Virus record (IMG/VR): IMGVR_UViG_3300022696_000071
Coordinates: 169,748 to 201,166 of that record
Direction: 5' to 3' (one strand)
DNA length: 31,419 nucleotides
From: a virus
Of this stretch, positions 13,279-29,842 are shown piece after piece. The notes beneath the pieces were generated by a model, which had not been told where the DNA came from, did no database searches, and saw only the letters and a program-made list of their open reading frames with translations. Position 1 is the stretch's first letter; each line of letters begins with the position of its first letter. Position numbers and translations under genes: made by a program.

Positions 13279-15120
13279 TTAATCTTCTTCTATTTTCCAT
13301 TCTCCCATAGCTAATTTCCGTTTCTCAGAACTTAATGTTAATAAATCGGTTATTTTATCAATATTACTGGTCCATGTTACTTTTCTTATTTTTCTCGTAT
13401 TCTTATCCAGTATAAGTCGTTTCAAATCTTTTGGTAAGAATTCTCCTAATCCTTTAAATCTATATATCTTTTCTCCTTTATTTGATGCTTCTTTTCTTTC
13501 ATTTGTTGTCCAAATTGGAACCAATTTTTTATTTCTACGAACACCATATAATGGAATAATACAAATATAAAGATTTCCATTTTTGATAATATCTGGAGTC
13601 AATTTTGCAAAAAGAGCAATAAGAAGAACTGTAATGAATCGACCAGCAGGATCAGCGTCTGCTGCTAATAATATTTTATCATATCGTAATTTTTTAATAT
13701 TACAATTATCAAGTATTCCAGTTCCAACAGCATTCACTATATCTTTTATTTCTTTATTTTTTATTAATTCATCTGTTTTCTTCATCATTGCATTTGGTAT
13801 TACACCACGAAGAGGGAGTATGGCATGATGTTTTTTATCTCTTACTTGAATAAGACCACCTATTGCAGAATCACCCTCCCCGATTATCAATTCAGAATTC
13901 TTTCTACTTTTACAATCTGATAATTTAGTGAATTTAGTTGATCCACGTTTTGTACCAGTTCCATTTCCCTTCTCAATTTTCAATGCTCTATTTTGAATTG
14001 ATTTTCTTCTCAATTCGAATCGTTCTATTAATTTATCTCTTATTTCTTTATTCTTAGAAAAATAATTAAATAATTCTCTATTAAGTATTTTATCCAAAAC
14101 TGATAAATCACTTTTGGACTCAAGTTTAACTTTAACTTGAGCTTCAAAAGATGTTTTTATTAATTTAAGATCCATGAATATACGAAGATTTGCAAGACAA
14201 TCTTCTGGAATATATTCTGCTTTATGTTTCTTTCCAATTCGCTCAAATACAGATTTTAATTCATTTGTTAACTTAGTTATATGAACGCCACTATGTACTC
14301 GTACTAAATTAACACATGTGAATGATTTTGTAGCAATTGGTGGATGATCATCCCATCCAATTTTAAGAAAACATTCTTCTGGTCCCTTTTTTACAGTAAA
14401 TTCAAACCATTCAATATTATCTATATGTTTTGTTAGATAATATTTTATAAGATCATTTCTATCTGTATTTATAACAACATCATTTCCATCTACTCGATAT
14501 ACAATTCTAAGTTTTGGATAATTTGAACATGCAATTCTTAATTTTTCTTCAATTACATCTAAATCTACACCAGTATCATTGAAATATTTAGAAGATGGTT
14601 TTACAGTTACTTTAGTTGAATATGGTGGATTACCATTATATGTTTCAAACTTTCGTGAATAGTCAGATGTATTCTTAAATGAATATGTTCCACGTTTTCC
14701 ATCTCTATAAATATCTATTTCAAAATATTCAGATACTGCGTTAACTGCTGTATTTCCAATTCCATGTAATCCACTCGCTATCTTATAAGCAGAATCTTTT
14801 TTGTCTTTATTAAATTTACCAGATGAAAAAAGTTTAAGAGAAGTAGAAATGGGTGGATCTTCTTCTTCTGGAAGATCAGGATCAAATGGCATACCTCTAC
14901 CATTATCTAATACTCTAAATTCTTTATTTTCAGTATCAATAAATACACCAATTATATCACTGTAGCCAGCTTGAACTTCATCAAGAGCATTATCGATTAA
15001 TTCTTCTGCTAATCTCGTAGCAGTTTCAGTACTTCCTAAATACATACCCGTATTATGACGAATATGATTGATTTCATCCATTACAACTATATCTTCAGTT
15101 CCATAAATATCCATAAGCAT
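13279..15120 (-). CDS. Type II DNA topoisomerase large subunit (GyrB-like ATPase + TOPRIM; T4 gp39 fused with gp60 equivalent)
   Basis: GHKL ATPase N-box EELIDNALDE, TOPRIM IIGEGDSAIGG and DADPAG. 613 aa is about T4 gp39 (516) plus gp60 (160), as in T2-type fused genes. Continuous frame with no bypass gap. Confidence 0.9.
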   Translation of the reverse strand: MLMDIYGTEDIVVMDEINHIRHNTGMYLGSTETATRLAEELIDNALDEVQAGYSDIIGVFIDTENKEFRVLDNGRGMPFDPDLPEEEDPPISTSLKLFSSGKFNKDKKDSAYKIASGLHGIGNTAVNAVSEYFEIDIYRDGKRGTYSFKNTSDYSRKFETYNGNPPYSTKVTVKPSSKYFNDTGVDLDVIEEKLRIACSNYPKLRIVYRVDGNDVVINTDRNDLIKYYLTKHIDNIEWFEFTVKKGPEECFLKIGWDDHPPIATKSFTCVNLVRVHSGVHITKLTNELKSVFERIGKKHKAEYIPEDCLANLRIFMDLKLIKTSFEAQVKVKLESKSDLSVLDKILNRELFNYFSKNKEIRDKLIERFELRRKSIQNRALKIEKGNGTGTKRGSTKFTKLSDCKSRKNSELIIGEGDSAIGGLIQVRDKKHHAILPLRGVIPNAMMKKTDELIKNKEIKDIVNAVGTGILDNCNIKKLRYDKILLAADADPAGRFITVLLIALFAKLTPDIIKNGNLYICIIPLYGVRRNKKLVPIWTTNERKEASNKGEKIYRFKGLGEFLPKDLKRLILDKNTRKIRKVTWTSNIDKITDLLTLSSEKRKLAMGEWKIEED

Positions 15121-15204: not shown

Positions 15205-15915
15205 TTACCACTGAAAATCTTGATTATCTATATTATCAACATTTTCTTGTGGTGGTGTTTGTTGTCCTCCACCACCACTATTTTGTTGTGGTTGATTCTG
15301 TTGTCCACCACCTCCACTATAGTTCTGATCATATCCACCATATCCACCACCACTCTGCTGTCCACCTTGACCTCCCTGTTGATTCTGTTGATTTTCTTTA
15401 TACTTCTTTGCTCTATCAACAGCTTCAAAGCAGTCATGAATAAATGGAAGCATTCGTGCGCCGTTTTCAATATATGATTTAAACAGCAACAATTCTTGCC
15501 CTCTCAGCAAGAATGATATGTTTTGTCCTTCACTCTGTGGAGGCAATGTGGTAAGAAGCATACATCCGTTAAGATTGCCTTGAGGGTCTTTTCCAGGAGC
15601 GAGAAATAGTCTGGATGGTTGATTTTGTCTGAAATGCGTTACTTTGAATACATTTTTCAGATCTTGTGGTGCTTTTGGATCTGGATCTTCATATGTTCCC
15701 TGTAATATTCGATCAAAACTTCTTGTTATTCCTACACATTCTCCGGGTGATAGAGAAAAGAAATTTTTGTTGTTCCAATCAAATACTTTTGCTCCTGCTT
15801 GTGGCCTTCCTTGTGCTTGCGGATTCAACGCTCTTGCCATTTCAATTTGAATGTTTCCCTTAACAAGCGTTACTCCAACTTTTAACGACGACATTTTTGG
15901 GTTGTAAAATTGCAT
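15205..15915 (-). CDS. Whirly-like ssDNA-binding protein with SSB-like Gly/Gln-rich tail and acidic-aromatic C-terminus (tentative)
   Basis: AKVFDWNNKNFFSLSPGECVGI resembles the Whirly signature (YDWSRKQVFSLSVTEIG). The downstream region is also similar (YEDPDP vs FFHDP; LLRGQELLLFKSYIE vs ITRAEFAVLISAFN). C-terminal 55 aa are GGQ/GGY repeats ending ...NIDNQDFQW, like bacterial SSB IDL plus acidic tip. RBS GGAGAGAG. Confidence 0.6.
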   Translation of the reverse strand: MQFYNPKMSSLKVGVTLVKGNIQIEMARALNPQAQGRPQAGAKVFDWNNKNFFSLSPGECVGITRSFDRILQGTYEDPDPKAPQDLKNVFKVTHFRQNQPSRLFLAPGKDPQGNLNGCMLLTTLPPQSEGQNISFLLRGQELLLFKSYIENGARMLPFIHDCFEAVDRAKKYKENQQNQQGGQGGQQSGGGYGGYDQNYSGGGGQQNQPQQNSGGGGQQTPPQENVDNIDNQDFQW

Positions 15916-16789: not shown

Positions 16790-16874
16790 GATAATCTCCC
16801 AATTTATGTATTTGTCCTATTCGTATTACTTTTCAAATAAAAAATAAAATTTTAAAAAATATTAATAACTGAAA

Positions 16875-16925
16875 GTGATATGATTCTGCTTATTCTATAA
16901 TATATAAATCGCAGAATCATATCAC
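16875..16925 (-). terminator. rho-independent terminator closing the tRNA/ncRNA transcription unit (perfect 15-bp stem GTGATATGATTCTGC/GCAGAATCATATCAC, U-rich tail on minus transcript)
   Basis: Perfect inverted repeat read directly. The minus-strand transcript continues with UUUCAGUUAUUAAUAUUUUUUAAAAUUUUAUUUUUU. Confidence 0.65.
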
Positions 16926-17391
16926 CGTTCCAGCTTACTACTATGCGAAGTCCTTGTCGGGATTTTCCGTCGCATGTTGATCTAAATCTTAATTTAGATC
17001 AACTTAATTATATCTAATCTTATAAATTAGATATAATCAGTACACTAAATACTTACTCTATAGTACTAACTAATAATATAATTTTTTATTAATATGCCAC
17101 CCCAATCCACCCACACCGAATACAATGGACTTATTGATGTGCCAAGTCGGTGAGGTTCCGAGTATTTCACGACACGCTTTATAATACGTAGATATGTATG
17201 AAATCAGATCTATAACTTAGATCCTATATCTATTATTATAAGCGTGTAACACAATAAATCTTGTTACTTCCTCCTACTCTGTACTCTTCCCACCCATCTC
17301 TCCCTAATGAAATTATCTATCATGATCTCTTATTCTTATCATCATGTTACCTCCTTTCTGATTGGTTTTCTGGTTAACTGCATGTTTTTGA

Positions 17392-17481
17392 TGGCGGAAG
17401 AGAGAGGATTCGAACCTCCGGACGCTTTTAAACGTCGATGGTTTTCAAGACCATTGCTTTAAACCACTCAGCCACTCTTCC
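17392..17481 (-). tRNA. tRNA-Ser (anticodon TGA), type II long variable arm, CCA encoded
   Basis: Hand-folded from the reverse complement: acceptor GGAAGAG/CTCTTCC, anticodon stem ATGGT/ACCAT with loop CTTGAAA, long variable arm, T-arm GGAGG-TTCGAAT-CCTCT, discriminator G, then CCA. Confidence 0.85.
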
Positions 17482-17581
17482 ATATGAATTATATATTATA
17501 AAGTAATCGATCTAATTCATAACTCTTCTCCAATTACTTTCTAAATAAAAAATATATTTAATAAAATCAAATAATTAAGAG

Positions 17582-17660
17582 TGGTGGACCCTGCTGGATT
17601 CGAACCAGCGAATGATCGGTTATGAGCCGATGGCCTTACCAGACTTGGCGAAGGGTCCAC
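17582..17660 (-). tRNA. tRNA-Met (anticodon CAT; elongator-type; could alternatively be lysidine-modified tRNA-Ile2), CCA encoded
   Basis: Acceptor GTGGACC/GGTCCAC, anticodon stem ATCGG/CCGAT with loop CTCATAA, T-arm GCTGG-TTCGAAT-CCAGC, discriminator A, then CCA. Confidence 0.85.
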
Positions 17661-19191
17661 ATAATTAAATTACAATATATCTTGAACTTTAATATGCCTA
17701 TGGAATTTTTATACGAGATGTGGAATGGATATTAAAATCCATCAAATATTAATTCCGTCACATAAATGCATCTCTATCGCAAATGAGTCAGAAAGGAGTT
17801 AGAAACCGACTCATTTACTATCCCTTTTATTTTATTTAGAAATAACCATAACCATTAATGCCGCCAATCGGCAGGGATTCTGTGATTATTCCATAGGCAT
17901 ATTAAAATTTAAGATAACTTATACACACTAAACTGATCATGGGCATGTATGTGGGAGGATGGTATGCGCGTACCATATTCCATATACATGCAAGCGAGTC
18001 TCATGATCAGTTTACTACATATAAATTGAATGATTTGAGTTCCCCAACATTGACAGTTTGCGTCACCGATCAAGGTCTAAGAACTTATTAAGAGAACCCA
18101 AATCAAAGCATTTGCATATATATGCATTAATCTGATCACAAGCCATGATTACGATACGAGAAATAGGATTAAATAATATCGTAATCATTAGAGAGAAGAA
18201 GGGGTTGTCTGCCGCAACCGTAAAGCTCTCAAACTTGTGACCAGATTAATACATATATAAAAGACTCAAATGGGGAAATGGGACAGTTTGAGTGGGTATT
18301 CTACTTTTTACCATCTCCCCATCTGAGAAACCAAATCGGGCACCATCGTTTGTGGCGATTATACATCCGGTATGAATAATAACCGCCGATGCCCTTATCT
18401 TATCGTTATATCAAACTCATATGTGGGTATCACCTCCTTCCTTAATATTTATCCGATTACTCACAGGCCAATCAGTCTTACACTCAACGCCCATGACATA
18501 AAAGCGAAGAGTTGCTGATTGACGACGACTAATATATTCTAATATGATTCCATGCAGGGAGACTCGTTGGTTAGACAATACTCCCTGAATATGACCGATG
18601 ACACATTGCAATGATTAACGTAAATTAATCACCGATCTTTGATTATCTGCACTCATCGCAAAATAATCACGACATCTTACTGCCGTTTTGACACGACCAC
18701 CACAGCCGCGTCTCAATGCATCAATCATGCACATTTACGTGTACTATGATTGTATCGGATTAGCTTTAATCATCCACTACATGGACGACATTTTATCCGA
18801 CAAATGCATGGAACCATATTACAATATACTAATTAAGAGTTGAAGATCTCGTTATTGATTGACTGCCACGAAAATCAACAACAAAATCTTCAATCTCTTT
18901 AAATTGATGAATACAACGTTATCATAATATATAAACCTTATAAGATTTATATACGTTGCTTGAGCCATAGCTTCCCCATCAAGCAACAGATAACGTTGTA
19001 CTCATAGTAAACTGATCGAGCATCGGTGTTTGTAAACGGAATGAACACCAATCTCTTTCGAGTGCATGATGTTCTCGTTTTGCTCGATCAGTTTATAATG
19101 AACACAATCTTGACTCGGCACGAATCAACCAAACGGATTAAATATTGATAAATAAAGATTGTGCTCATTATAAAATCAAAGATTAATTGAG
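17661..19191 (-). ncRNA. ORF-free, GC-elevated (about 40%), hairpin-dense 1.5-kb region inside the tRNA operon; candidate stable structured RNA(s), identity unknown
   Basis: No ORF of 65 aa or more on either strand (the two 60-64 aa track ORFs lack RBS, and one overlaps tRNA-Leu). Many perfect 10-15 bp inverted repeats, including two about 85-nt hairpins at 17931-18014 and 19007-19092. Flanked by co-oriented tRNAs. Confidence 0.35.
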
Positions 19192-19276
19192 TACCGGGAG
19201 CGGGACTCGAACCCGCACGGTCGCAATGACCTCGGATTTTAAGTCCGATATGTAGACCTGATTCCATCATCCCGGC
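19192..19276 (-). tRNA. tRNA-Leu (anticodon TAA), type II long variable arm, no encoded CCA
   Basis: Acceptor GCCGGGA/TCCCGGT (G1-U72 wobble), anticodon stem TCGGA/TCCGA with loop CTTAAAA, variable arm GGTCATTGCGACC, T-arm GCGGG-TTCGAGT-CCCGC, discriminator A. Confidence 0.75.
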
Positions 19277-19336
19277 ACAAAAATCTAAATTGATCTTTGA
19301 TTATAATTTAATATATATAGTCAGTTGAATATATAT

Positions 19337-19663
19337 TTAATCAACAATAAGTTTTTTTATCTTAGCTTTAAGCATGAATTGTCTCAATTCATCTTCGGTT
19401 ACATTTAAAGTTCCAGATTTTATCATATCATTGAAAGCATCATATTTTTCAAATAATCGATCTTCTACACTTATTTTATTCTCATCATTTTTTCTATCTC
19501 TTTCAAGAACAAGATTTGTAAATTCATCAACTATATCATCAGTTGCACAACTGAGTTTGATTATTTTATTTCGATATGCTTCTTCATGTAATCTTGATTG
19601 ACACAGCATAGCAGCCAATATGACATTCGTAACTACACTCACAAATAAAAACAAACTAATCAT
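19337..19663 (-). CDS. hypothetical membrane-anchored protein (N-terminal TM helix, 108 aa)
   Basis: N-terminal hydrophobic segment ISLFLFVSVVTNVILAAML followed by a charged, coiled-coil-like domain. Confidence 0.5.
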   Translation of the reverse strand: MISLFLFVSVVTNVILAAMLCQSRLHEEAYRNKIIKLSCATDDIVDEFTNLVLERDRKNDENKISVEDRLFEKYDAFNDMIKSGTLNVTEDELRQFMLKAKIKKLIVD

Positions 19664-26697: not shown

Positions 26698-26961
26698 GAT
26701 ATATTCTCCTTTATAAATATAATAAATTTTACAAAAAATATATAAAGTGGTATTCTTTGCACTTTATATATTTCCATTTGAGATTTGACATGATAGTCCC
26801 AAATGGTTGTCGGATGGGTTTCATCATATTTCCCTTTTCGAGCCAATGTAATAGTGGCTCTATCCGACTGCCAGATCCCGCAGGTTGCGGGGTTTATAGC
26901 GCGTATCTGTACATGGGATTTTCACCCACTCTGGCCCGCGCTTCGGTCTGGATCACGTCTC

Positions 26962-27870
26962 TTAGATCGCCGAGACGACTATCCGCGTAACCAGTTCAAG
27001 ATCCAATTCTGAATCTTTTTTCTGGTTGCTGCCGATAATCGTGCCACTTGGCGGTCCACCCCAACCACTTTCGACTTTACTGATGTCGTCAGCAGCGGGG
27101 GCAACGGAGATTCCCTTGTTACCAGCGACCGTAAACTTTCTAATCCCTTGGAAATTGGGATTAACAGCCACGACCACTTGTGCACCATTTTCATACAGTG
27201 CACCTATGGTTCCAAAGAAACCAGACTCCACCGAAGCTATAATAAGCCCCGACTTTGTCTTACCCCATGTTGCCTTTTCGACGACCTTCTGCACTTGCCG
27301 TTTATTTTCGGCGTGTGCATCGACGAATTGAACATAATGTTCATTTTCATCGACCAACAGTTTCATCGATCCAAAAGGATCAATTCCACTGCGGGAAATA
27401 TCGTCGAGAAACAATATCCCTTCTTCGACCTTTTTCGCGTTATCTTTCGGATTAACCAGAAAGATACCGGAAATTATGTCGGAGAGGAACGGGGGTTCCC
27501 CGATAGAGTATTTTCGGATCTCGTCCGGGCCGAATCTATCCATCGTATCGATGTATTTTACGATACGCTGAGTATCTTCGGTGTAGACACCGACTGGCTT
27601 ATATTTATCATAAGCCTGCCAGGTCGCCGAAACGAGACCTTCAGATCCTTCGCCATGATGATCAAAGTTCATCAGATCGACTCGACCGCTTCCACCGCAT
27701 TCGATACAAACTACGGTTGGGTCGGAAAGATCTTCAGCCTTTGCATCGCCAAAGACGAACTCAATGGCATCGGCCTTAACGTCGAAACGAAAAGCTAAAA
27801 GCCAAAGAGCACCGATAATATCAAGATCGACCTTAAACCCACAGACGATCTTGGAAATATTATCCAACAT
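26962..27870 (-). CDS. hypothetical protein encoded by an anomalously GC-rich (about 50%) gene, 302 aa; function unknown
   Basis: Perfect RBS GGAGGGAGG 6 nt before the ATG at 27870. Gly/Val/Asp/Ala-rich composition typical of a high-GC donor. ILFLDDISRSG is weakly reminiscent of a PRPP-binding loop (speculative). Overlapping long plus-strand ORFs are GC artefacts. Confidence 0.6.
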   Translation of the reverse strand: MLDNISKIVCGFKVDLDIIGALWLLAFRFDVKADAIEFVFGDAKAEDLSDPTVVCIECGGSGRVDLMNFDHHGEGSEGLVSATWQAYDKYKPVGVYTEDTQRIVKYIDTMDRFGPDEIRKYSIGEPPFLSDIISGIFLVNPKDNAKKVEEGILFLDDISRSGIDPFGSMKLLVDENEHYVQFVDAHAENKRQVQKVVEKATWGKTKSGLIIASVESGFFGTIGALYENGAQVVVAVNPNFQGIRKFTVAGNKGISVAPAADDISKVESGWGGPPSGTIIGSNQKKDSELDLELVTRIVVSAI

Positions 27871-28273
27871 AAGAATCCTCCCTCCATTGGATTTACGTGT
27901 CCAATGCTCCGTGCTTATAATATTCAGTCACCAGATTTGTCAGATCTGTTTACCCAGAATATCTTCGCTGGAGTCTCTCACGGCATATTTTCATAAACGT
28001 AATATGCAACGTTATGTTAGAATTTAATATATATAGTGATTTTAATAAAAAACACGTAATGCAAACGTGTTCCCTGGAGCATATTCCAGTATCATTTTTG
28101 TTAGATATATGGCTGACTAAACCATTACTTTTATAGTGGTATTCCACTGATTTTTTCAATGCTTTCTCACATTGCCGAGTTTTTTGCTTCTCGTATAAAG
28201 TTTTTACCAATTCTTACGCGATTGGATGGCTACACTTTATAAGTAACCATTTAGCACGTTTTCAGATTAGAAG

Positions 28274-28822
28274 TTACCCTCTAATCTTACAATATTCCAA
28301 TCCAAGAGATATAGCTTCTTGGACTAAAACTATTGTACCAACCAATATCTCCGAAGAGACATTAGATGGAAAAACTGGATCTCCGGGATGGAAAGTGTAT
28401 ACTACTTCACTTTCCATTTCCTGACCAAGAATCAGCACAGTATAATCGACAGAATATCGATGAAGATCAATATCCTCTCGATCTACAACTGCAGATACTT
28501 GGCCCGTCTCTTTACCATCATCGAGTTCGATGACGGTTAGATTCGGGAGATCATCCAACCTCACGACACCCACTTTACCCCCCAAATTATGGGTGATGAA
28601 TGCCGTACATCCGTCTGCTACAGACGGATGTTTAAATGGTTTCCATTCAGCATTAATGAGATCGTCTTCAGTGACTCTCCCATTAAATGTCGAACCGATA
28701 CCATCCGGTTGGCGAGACTTAAGCGTATTTTGAAAGTAGTCGGTCGGAAATCCTTCGACTTCTTTCGAGAGACGCTTAGTCTCATGGATAGCATTTTCGA
28801 TTCGTTTCTGAATCGTATCCAT
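28274..28822 (-). CDS. hypothetical protein encoded by a second GC-rich (about 50%) gene, 182 aa
   Basis: Intact ORF. Same compositional anomaly as 26962..27870, separated from it by an AT-rich 400-nt spacer. Confidence 0.55.
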   Translation of the reverse strand: MDTIQKRIENAIHETKRLSKEVEGFPTDYFQNTLKSRQPDGIGSTFNGRVTEDDLINAEWKPFKHPSVADGCTAFITHNLGGKVGVVRLDDLPNLTVIELDDGKETGQVSAVVDREDIDLHRYSVDYTVLILGQEMESEVVYTFHPGDPVFPSNVSSEILVGTIVLVQEAISLGLEYCKIRG

Positions 28823-28872
28823 TAATACTTAATATATATATAATATATTCATTATATATATAAAATTTTAAT

Positions 28873-29434: not shown

Positions 29435-29842
29435 TTATGTTGTAATCTTCGTCTCAACATCGCCATCAGCAATATCAAAATGGATTCTCTTCTTTAATCC
29501 AACACATGATGCAATTGCTGGTAGCATTGTTTGTCTTAACGATTTTGCAATTATTCCTTTCACTCCAATTAGCCTACCAGTGTCTATCATCGTTGATGCT
29601 GATGCAGATACAACAATCAATGATGGATATTCATTTATTTGTACATCCAACTTTTTGGGATCTTTAACAAGAATATGTAATTGCGAGATTGCTCTTTCTT
29701 TGAATAATTCGAATGCTTTTTCATTACTACTTATAGATTCATTATCTTTTGATTGTTTTTCTTTTTCCACAACGCCATTATCTTTTGTATCTTTTGTCAT
29801 TTGGTATCCTTTCATTTTTGCATCAACTATAGTAAACGCCAT
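29435..29842 (-). CDS. KH-domain-like RNA-binding protein (135 aa)
   Basis: GRLIGVKGIIAKSLRQ fits the KH GxxG loop pattern (I-G-x-x-G-x-x-I). Confidence 0.5.
   Translation of the reverse strand: MAFTIVDAKMKGYQMTKDTKDNGVVEKEKQSKDNESISSNEKAFELFKERAISQLHILVKDPKKLDVQINEYPSLIVVSASASTMIDTGRLIGVKGIIAKSLRQTMLPAIASCVGLKKRIHFDIADGDVETKITT

Follow-up and report, generated by a model that had tools for sequence, protein, structure and literature searches.

A gene-free, hairpin-dense block within the tRNA cluster of an uncultured jumbo-class phage as a candidate source of structured non-coding RNAs

What purpose is served by some 1.5 kb of gene-free, heavily structured sequence in the middle of a phage tRNA operon? 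The question is raised by the IMG/VR virus record IMGVR_UViG_3300022696_000071, which represents an uncultured, jumbo-class phage. The stretch that was analysed, referred to here as the window, comprises 31,419 nucleotides (positions 169,748 to 201,166 of that record), and its minus strand carries every gene and all seven tRNAs. The block of interest (window positions 17659-19190) is located between the genes for tRNA-Met and tRNA-Leu. It is probably the structured non-coding middle of the tRNA operon, from which stable structured RNAs would be processed; that it is a functional RNA is held with moderate confidence, and any specific function with low confidence. Stable or large non-coding RNAs (ncRNAs) beside phage tRNA islands are a recurring class of unexplained function (RNAs C and D of T4, GOLLD, ROOL and the RNAs of phage K), to which this locus would add an unusually large and architecturally different example, one that resembles a hairpin array and appears to be partly built by duplication. 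The block is an orphan, yet it contains internal evidence of selection at the RNA level.

The block is rich in long inverted repeats, defined here as arms of at least 16 nt that are at least 84% complementary and span no more than 400 nt. Six of these occur in 1.65 kb, compared with a mean of 0.06 and a maximum of one in 200 dinucleotide shuffles; the remaining 30 kb or so of the window contain nine. The stems of the block have arms of 17-36 nt that are 84-95% complementary, and among them are pairs with arms of 36 nt (17671-17706/17888-17923), 26 nt (18117-18142/18234-18259, 92% complementary) and 27 nt (18530-18556/18805-18831), along with a further pair at 18840-18860/18873-18893. The shorter inverted repeats listed in an earlier, sequence-only reading of this DNA are real, and each is a fragment of a longer stem. 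The folding statistics, given as z-scores, are likewise extreme. On the minus strand the three 500-nt tiles of the block reach -6.7, -4.9 and -11.2 and its single folding units -6.4 to -10.5, whereas coding controls range from -0.4 to -3.4. In two of the three tiles the minus strand folds much better than the plus strand (-4.9 versus -1.8 in the tile that holds the GC-rich hairpins h8 and h9), and the same applies to the tile 18601-18800 (-7.0 versus -1.3).

The imperfections within these stems allow RNA helices to be distinguished from DNA palindromes. A decaying DNA palindrome should accumulate G:T mismatches equally on both strands, whereas an RNA helix under selection should tolerate G.U pairs only on the transcribed strand. 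In the stems of the block (arms of at least 16 nt) the imperfections consist of 12 minus-strand G.U pairs, a single plus-strand G.U pair and three other mismatches; in the chance repeats of the rest of the window the corresponding counts are 16, 18 and 78. The strand bias is significant by a binomial test (p=0.0017), by Fisher's test (p=0.004) and against a null drawn from the base composition of the block itself, for which the expected fraction is 0.58 (p=0.009). Since nearly all G.U imperfections fall on the minus strand, the transcribed strand is that of the tRNAs, and the helices of the block appear to have been kept as RNA on that strand and not as DNA palindromes. The earlier suggestion of structured RNA or RNAs on the tRNA strand within the tRNA unit is upheld to this extent, by the extreme and partly strand-specific folding and by the minus-strand G.U excess.

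The architecture of the block (Table 1) was derived from a fold limited to a pair span of 320 nt, which replaced an unconstrained global fold whose AU-rich long-range pairs were unreliable. In the span-limited fold 67% of the nucleotides are paired and both tRNA cloverleaves are kept. The region between the two tRNAs resolves into 12 contiguous stem-closed domains and a trivial 8-nt hairpin, joined by linkers of 0-7 nt. Domain A, which abuts tRNA-Met, has a multi-branch core, and for both A and D the centroid structure is close to that of minimum free energy. The closing helices of H, E, D, C, B and A (23, 26, 25, 28, 25 and 28 bp, respectively) attain the length of near-continuous double-stranded RNA, about 20 bp or more, that characterizes RNase III substrates. 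Hairpin G forms only 12 bp in this fold; its outer arms compete with H and F. The arms overlap at 19092-19107 (common to H and G) and at 18996-19005 (common to G and F), so that H and F can form in full only when the outer 9-16 bp of G are open, an attenuator-like 1:2 / 2:3 / 3:4 arrangement; the overlap might be a folding switch or a by-product of duplication.

Table 1. Predicted features of the block and its flanks; coordinates are window positions.
Feature	Position	Strand	Description	Basis
tRNA-Leu(UAA)	19191..19276	-	5' boundary of block on transcribed strand	ARAGORN; Rfam tRNA, 55.9 bits
Domain L	19302-19174	-	16-bp stem around tRNA-Leu, arms ~19171-19191/~19285-19305	inverted repeat I10; span-limited fold
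Hairpin H	19173-19093	-	81 nt, 23-bp closing helix	I9; z -7.2
Hairpin G	19107-18996	-	112 nt, 27-nt arms, UAAACUGAUC stem box	I5; z -6.9
Domain F	19005-18907	-	99 nt, Y-shaped, 17-bp closing helix, 2 inner hairpins	I18; z -8.8
Hairpin E	18899-18835	-	65 nt, nearly perfect, 26 bp, 3 minus-strand G.U pairs	I12; z -6.9
Domain D	18831-18530	-	302 nt, 25-bp closing helix, multi-branch core, 7 hairpin loops	I4; z -10.5
Domain d2	18529-18402	-	128 nt, 5-bp closing helix, three hairpins	span-limited fold
Hairpin h8	18400-18333	-	GC-rich, 4-bp closing helix	span-limited fold
Hairpin h9	18327-18265	-	GC-rich, 17-bp helix	span-limited fold
Hairpin C	18259-18117	-	143 nt, 28-bp closing helix (4 G.U), 2 inner hairpins	I3; z -10.5
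Hairpin m	18105-18031	-	75 nt, 15-bp closing helix	span-limited fold
Hairpin B	18026-17917	-	110-112 nt, nearly continuous, 25-bp closing helix	I7; z -6.4
Domain A	17916-17678 (arms 17671..17923)	-	~240-250 nt, 28-36-bp closing helix, 5 hairpin loops	I1; z -8.0
tRNA-Met(CAU)	17582..17658	-	3' boundary of block	ARAGORN; Rfam
tRNA-Ser(UGA)	17392..17481	-	100 nt further downstream	ARAGORN; Rfam
Candidate terminator of tRNA/ncRNA unit	16875..16925	-	25-bp hairpin, then U-rich tract	I6; sequence

One predicted loop of domain d2 displays the Shine-Dalgarno-like sequence AAGGAGGUGAU, an 11-nt perfect complement of the 3' tail of 16S rRNA. From its GGAGG core it is 12 nt downstream to an ATG, after which the reading frame continues for just four codons (MSLI*). 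This combination (18405-18441, minus strand) could be a mini-ORF (open reading frame), a ribosome-binding decoy or what is left of the start of a gene. Visual inspection of the hairpin loops, with no formal test, yielded no convincing mimic of an anticodon loop.

Part of the block seems to have grown by duplication of a hairpin unit, as suggested by the sequences of B, C and G. These units are weakly but significantly similar (alignment z 3.5-3.7) and share a consensus fold of 38 pairs, including a 27-bp closing stem, in which 16 of the 38 pairs change on both sides between copies. A covariance model of the family (R1) scores its training copies B, G and C at 108.4, 96.7 and 91.2 bits, and elsewhere in the window it recovers only the closing stems of D (E ~0.002) and A (E ~0.06). 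The three units also have in common the stem box TAAAYTGATC. In the form TAA[AT][CT]TG[AG]TC this 10-bp box occurs eight times in the window, with seven copies inside the block (17929-19295), compared with a mean of 1.3 and a maximum of five in shuffles. The copies in the block are always situated in long stems (B, C, G and the stem bracketing tRNA-Leu), and the box recurs in inverted orientation. It could be a recognition element or a trace of the duplication of units.

The block could not be assigned to a known RNA family. Against the 4227 families of Rfam, the whole window yields only tRNAs at the gathering threshold. A run at E<=10 with permissive filters over 17400-19400 returned no GOLLD, ROOL, group I or group II intron, transfer-messenger RNA (tmRNA), RNase P, 6S or Y RNA, and its sub-threshold extras (RNA-OUT and miRNA precursors) are generic hairpin look-alikes. 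The sequence-only reading had pointed to Rfam and to a possible group I intron core; the comparison matches the flanking tRNAs and no family within the block, and the intron is rejected, as there is no Rfam match even at E<=10. An array of tRNAs, tmRNAs or pseudo-tRNAs was likewise discarded, since nothing beyond the flanking tRNAs is detected by ARAGORN or Rfam. Run in relaxed and intron-aware modes, ARAGORN reveals no hidden or interrupted tRNA in the block, the 'tRNA-Lys' called by the relaxed run at 18827-18908 is a false positive corresponding to hairpin E, and the minus strand of 17659-19190 contains no T-loop motif.

Homologues were sought among related phages by means of the topoisomerase II large subunit, which is encoded at 13279-15120. 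The enzyme itself is on record only from a JGI source, on two contigs of which the longer measures 201 kb. Among 5.8 billion proteins, those next in similarity share at most 60% identity with it and come from contigs of up to about 335 kb, while the nearest cultured phages are at about 30% identity. An alignment of 26 topoisomerase II sequences gave access to 159 loci in IMG/VR and the JGI metagenomes, which brought the related loci to 167 (2.5 Mb); in none of them was a homologue of the block recovered by nhmmer, blastn or the covariance model. Both genes flanking the block are orphans with no relative among the 5.8 billion proteins, and this, together with the result for the 167 loci, makes the block lineage-specific. 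A blastn search of INPHARED matched only the tRNAs, with T4-like phages matching only at tRNA-Ser, and three exact probes in IMG/VR and one tRNA-Leu probe in the JGI metagenomes gave no matches. Looked up by exact sequence, the flanking proteins likewise returned no record. A syntenic tRNA island is present in L001, at 59% topoisomerase II identity, and in L007, which are the closest large relatives. That of L001, located upstream of the same Whirly-like gene, contains six tRNAs among small genes with no gap of more than 200 nt, and inspection of synteny in L001 to L008 showed tRNA islands and no large non-coding block. ORF-free gaps of at least 700 nt number only 12 in the 167 loci; the largest is 1377 nt and none has the long-stem signature, whereas the same settings applied to the window return a 2489-nt gap with six long stems. 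The tRNA-adjacent gaps of the relatives contain only tRNAs and tRNA fragments. Because relatives with a syntenic island lack the block, it is dispensable for the clade.

The reading that we favour, a structured operon middle processed to stable RNAs, envisages the following course of events. Transcription of the minus strand would run from a point ahead of tRNA-Leu across the block and on over tRNA-Met and tRNA-Ser, probably as far as the hairpin and U-tract at about 16.9 kb, and the transcript would fold locally into some 12 contiguous domains that leave hardly any single-stranded sequence between them. The closing helices of 15-28 bp, the bracket of tRNA-Leu among them, may then be substrates of an RNase III-type enzyme, whose cuts, combined with RNase P and 3' trimming, would yield mature tRNAs and discrete nuclease-resistant RNAs. 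The released RNAs would be expected to accumulate during infection in the manner of T4 RNAs C and D, GOLLD and ROOL, and the long non-coding RNAs (lncRNAs) of phage K, and they might bind or titrate a host factor, for example the ribosome via the displayed anti-16S sequence. The minus strand within the block contains no sigma-70-like promoter and only weak terminator-like sites. Downstream of tRNA-Ser, the hairpin and U-tract of 16925-16875 form, from their sequence, a plausible end of the transcription unit.

Several points weigh against this reading. No search found a homologue, so there is neither evolutionary conservation nor independent covariation to draw upon, and the block is missing from relatives whose tRNA islands are syntenic. 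Just 13-19 positions are informative in the G.U test. A coding island of raised GC content in the same window also reaches fold z-scores of -6 to -8, which makes z-scores alone weak evidence in this genome. Finally, the expression of the block, its cleavage by RNase III and the stability of the products are matters of inference. Should expression and processing follow the proposal, the locus would show that such RNAs are built by phages de novo and in a lineage-specific manner, and it would offer tractable, short and very stable hairpin RNAs for tests of host-factor binding; if it is not expressed, it becomes a cautionary case for purely thermodynamic prediction of ncRNAs in AT-rich phage genomes.

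In position the block is analogous to T4 RNAs C and D, to GOLLD and ROOL, and to the lncRNAs of phage K, and it is a member of none of these groups. The T4 RNAs (species 1 and 2, encoded by rnaC and rnaD) are, like the block, non-coding, on the tRNA strand and within a tRNA cluster, where they abut tRNAs with 1-6 nt spacers according to the T4 annotation and presumably arise from the same precursor. At 139 and 119 nt they are comparable to B, C and G (110-143 nt). Species 1 RNA was reportedly found in the 1970s to be an RNase III substrate in vitro. T4 has just two such RNAs, about 260 nt in total, as opposed to some 12 domains in 1.5 kb, and the fold z-scores of rnaC and rnaD (-4.6 and -0.8) contrast with the -6 to -10.5 of the block units; rnaC also has a tRNA-like T-arm and an acceptor-like stem, and the block units have neither. 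When the block is compared with rnaC and rnaD, nhmmer finds nothing and blastn only the GGTTCGAATCC T-arm of the flanking tRNAs. The function of T4 RNAs C and D is still unknown (PMC9697503).

GOLLD and ROOL are structured RNAs of about 580 to more than 800 nt in phages and prophages, often adjoin tRNA islands and have no known function (PMC12286853, PMC5737381). One GOLLD example adjoins tRNA-Met (PMC12286853, PMC5737381), and tRNAs can be embedded in the linker of GOLLD (PMC12286853). The block likewise occurs in a phage and between tRNA genes, yet neither covariance model matches it at E<=10 on the 2-kb query, and it is dominated by long simple hairpins, with no conserved core or pseudoknots definable without homologues. 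The lnc001 and lnc002 RNAs of Staphylococcus phage K (Kayvirus), at 635 and 1154 nt, are intergenic, adjoin tRNA genes, are abundantly transcribed and are of unknown function (PMC9241854). Their size class is comparable to that of the block, to which blastn against INPHARED finds no sequence similarity; they were defined by RNA-seq, whereas the block is defined by sequence and predicted structure only. In rRNA operons and in the early transcripts of phage T7, long flanking stems are cut by RNase III and release the RNA that they enclose. The tRNA-Leu bracket and the domain closing stems of the block may be likened to these by analogy, with the difference that the rRNA and T7 stems flank RNAs of known function and most stems of the block enclose further structure.

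A bolder version, which we put forward tentatively and consider doubtful, is that the block represents an unseen class of tRNA-operon-embedded RNA, a 1.5-kb hairpin-module array with two ornate domains that would be processed by RNase III to stable RNAs acting on the host. Here the RNAs might titrate RNase III or other double-stranded-RNA-binding or defence proteins, or tether ribosomes via the anti-16S sequence. If true, such a class would be to bacterial viruses what the tRNA-linked clusters of hairpin RNAs are to some eukaryotic viruses.

The hairpins may instead act only in cis, in that they process, insulate or stabilise the flanking tRNAs and the excised pieces have no function. This is suggested by the stem that brackets tRNA-Leu (flank duplex dG -12.5, z -2.9), the only clearly non-random bracketing stem among the seven tRNAs of the window, and it would agree with the ability of the relatives' tRNA islands to manage without a block that is not conserved. 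It is nevertheless unlikely, as 1.5 kb with 12 domains goes far beyond the needs of two tRNAs, the five other tRNAs in the window have no bracketing stems, and the multi-branch domains A and D have a more complex build than a processing stem.

Another view is that the whole 1.5 kb acts as a single giant 'ornate' molecule in the manner of GOLLD and ROOL, and it is a little less likely again. The domains are contiguous (0-7 nt linkers), the multi-branch layout of domains A and D recalls the modules of ornate RNAs, and GOLLD and ROOL occur near phage tRNA islands, with GOLLD able to hold tRNAs in a linker (PMC12286853). Yet their covariance models fail to match at E<=10, most of the length is made up of simple, very long and nearly perfect hairpins and is not junction-rich, the only additions from an unconstrained global fold are weak, AU-rich long-range pairs, and without homologues no conserved core is demonstrable. 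The single large stable RNA that had been proposed from the sequence is not borne out, as the fold looks like about 12 autonomous domains.

A role as DNA, with cruciform or protein-binding palindromes serving as a replication origin, packaging site or recombination hotspot, is very unlikely. The density of inverted repeats, the inverted recurrence of a box that contains GATC, and the strongly negative fold z-scores of both strands in some tiles would all agree with it, but the one-strand G.U imperfections (12:1) are not predicted by DNA palindromes. A GATC-based origin was rejected in particular, as GATC is not specifically enriched: nine are observed in the block against 5.5 expected, the same excess as in the window at large. 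Moreover, cumulative GC skew shows no inflection at the block, transcription is co-directional on both sides, and the block contains no iterons or direct-repeat arrays.

The sequence-only reading also offered a decayed remnant of acquired GC-richer DNA (pseudogenes, with incidental structure), for which we see very little prospect. The observation from which it starts is confirmed, in that the GC content of the block (0.361) exceeds that of the window as a whole (0.288) and of the window without the block and the island at 26.7-28.8 kb (0.272), and that there is no credible ORF between tRNA-Met and tRNA-Leu. The longest on either strand is 64 aa and lacks a Shine-Dalgarno sequence, and reassignment of any single stop codon opens nothing above 122 codons on the minus strand of the block. 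The ORF-free extent is real and had been underestimated, as it runs from about 16848 to 19336, tRNA-Ser included. A remnant would be consistent with the raised GC content, with an acquired GC-rich island 8 kb away, with the lineage specificity of the block, and with the isolated Shine-Dalgarno sequence and ATG (4-codon ORF, ~18420-18441), which could be a gene-start relic. However, at E<=1 neither Pfam nor PHROGs has a match to any of the six reading frames of the block, and a tblastx comparison with the syntenic genes of relatives gives none either. Nor does decay generate inverted repeats of 17-36 nt at a density 100 times that of the shuffles, or a bias of G.U pairs towards one strand. A recoded gene or pseudogene was discarded likewise, as stop reassignment yields no long ORF and no protein similarity is left. 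The island itself, cited earlier as a model of such decay, is intact coding DNA.

Least credible of all is a cluster of mobile hairpins resembling miniature inverted-repeat transposable elements, gathered in a permissive intergenic site, for although the block is lineage-specific, B and G are both 112 nt with a common terminal inverted-repeat sequence, C is related, and all three have 25-28-nt inverted termini with the shared box, no unit has target-site duplications, R1 detects copies neither in the rest of the window nor in the 2.5 Mb of relatives, no transposase is nearby, and the G.U strand bias argues for selection on RNA.

Some further features of the transcription unit and of the clade may be recorded. 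The region between tRNA-Ser and the next gene (16848-17391) is ORF-poor and structured (z -8.6 on the minus strand versus -5.2 on the plus strand) and includes a mini-ORF of 10 codons (start 17345) that is preceded by a strong Shine-Dalgarno sequence. Just downstream, another Shine-Dalgarno sequence leads a hydrophobic ORF of 50 aa (16789 to 16637, minus strand), which is below the usual gene-calling length. Among relatives with 38-39% topoisomerase II identity, four loci have ORF-free gaps of 0.7-1.4 kb adjoining tRNAs (L038 1124-2500, L021 1-904, L016 2270-3000 and L132 2016-2994). These gaps are slightly raised in GC content and contain no long stems and no Rfam family; those of L038 and L021 give partial tRNA matches (model positions 10-63 of 71) and could be tRNA pseudogenes or tRNA-like elements. 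A conserved protein of 236 aa (window 15205-15915; L001 6955-7698; L004 1548-2258) has a weak match, just below the cut-off, to the single-stranded-DNA-binding Whirly family of Pfam (E 2e-4), and across this jumbo-phage clade its gene lies at the edge of the tRNA island. Genes for PTPS/QueD, RNA ligase and RtcB are found near topoisomerase II in various members.

The GC-rich island (26700-28830) is probably a recent horizontal acquisition. Its GC content is 0.44-0.50, compared with 0.27 for the phage, and it is coding and not decayed, with an intact 302-aa ORF (26962-27870, minus strand) that contains an 'NFDHHGEG' motif and a second ORF of 182 aa (28274-28822, minus strand). Pfam and PHROGs contain no match to either ORF. 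Although the island is coding, both of its strands fold with z-scores of -6 to -8. Lastly, a 135-aa protein encoded at 29435-29842, in the tRNA island, has a sub-threshold match to the RNA-binding KH domain of KhpA/B (E 4e-4; 20.7 bits against a cut-off of 32.1), which is the sole nearby hint of an RNA-binding partner.

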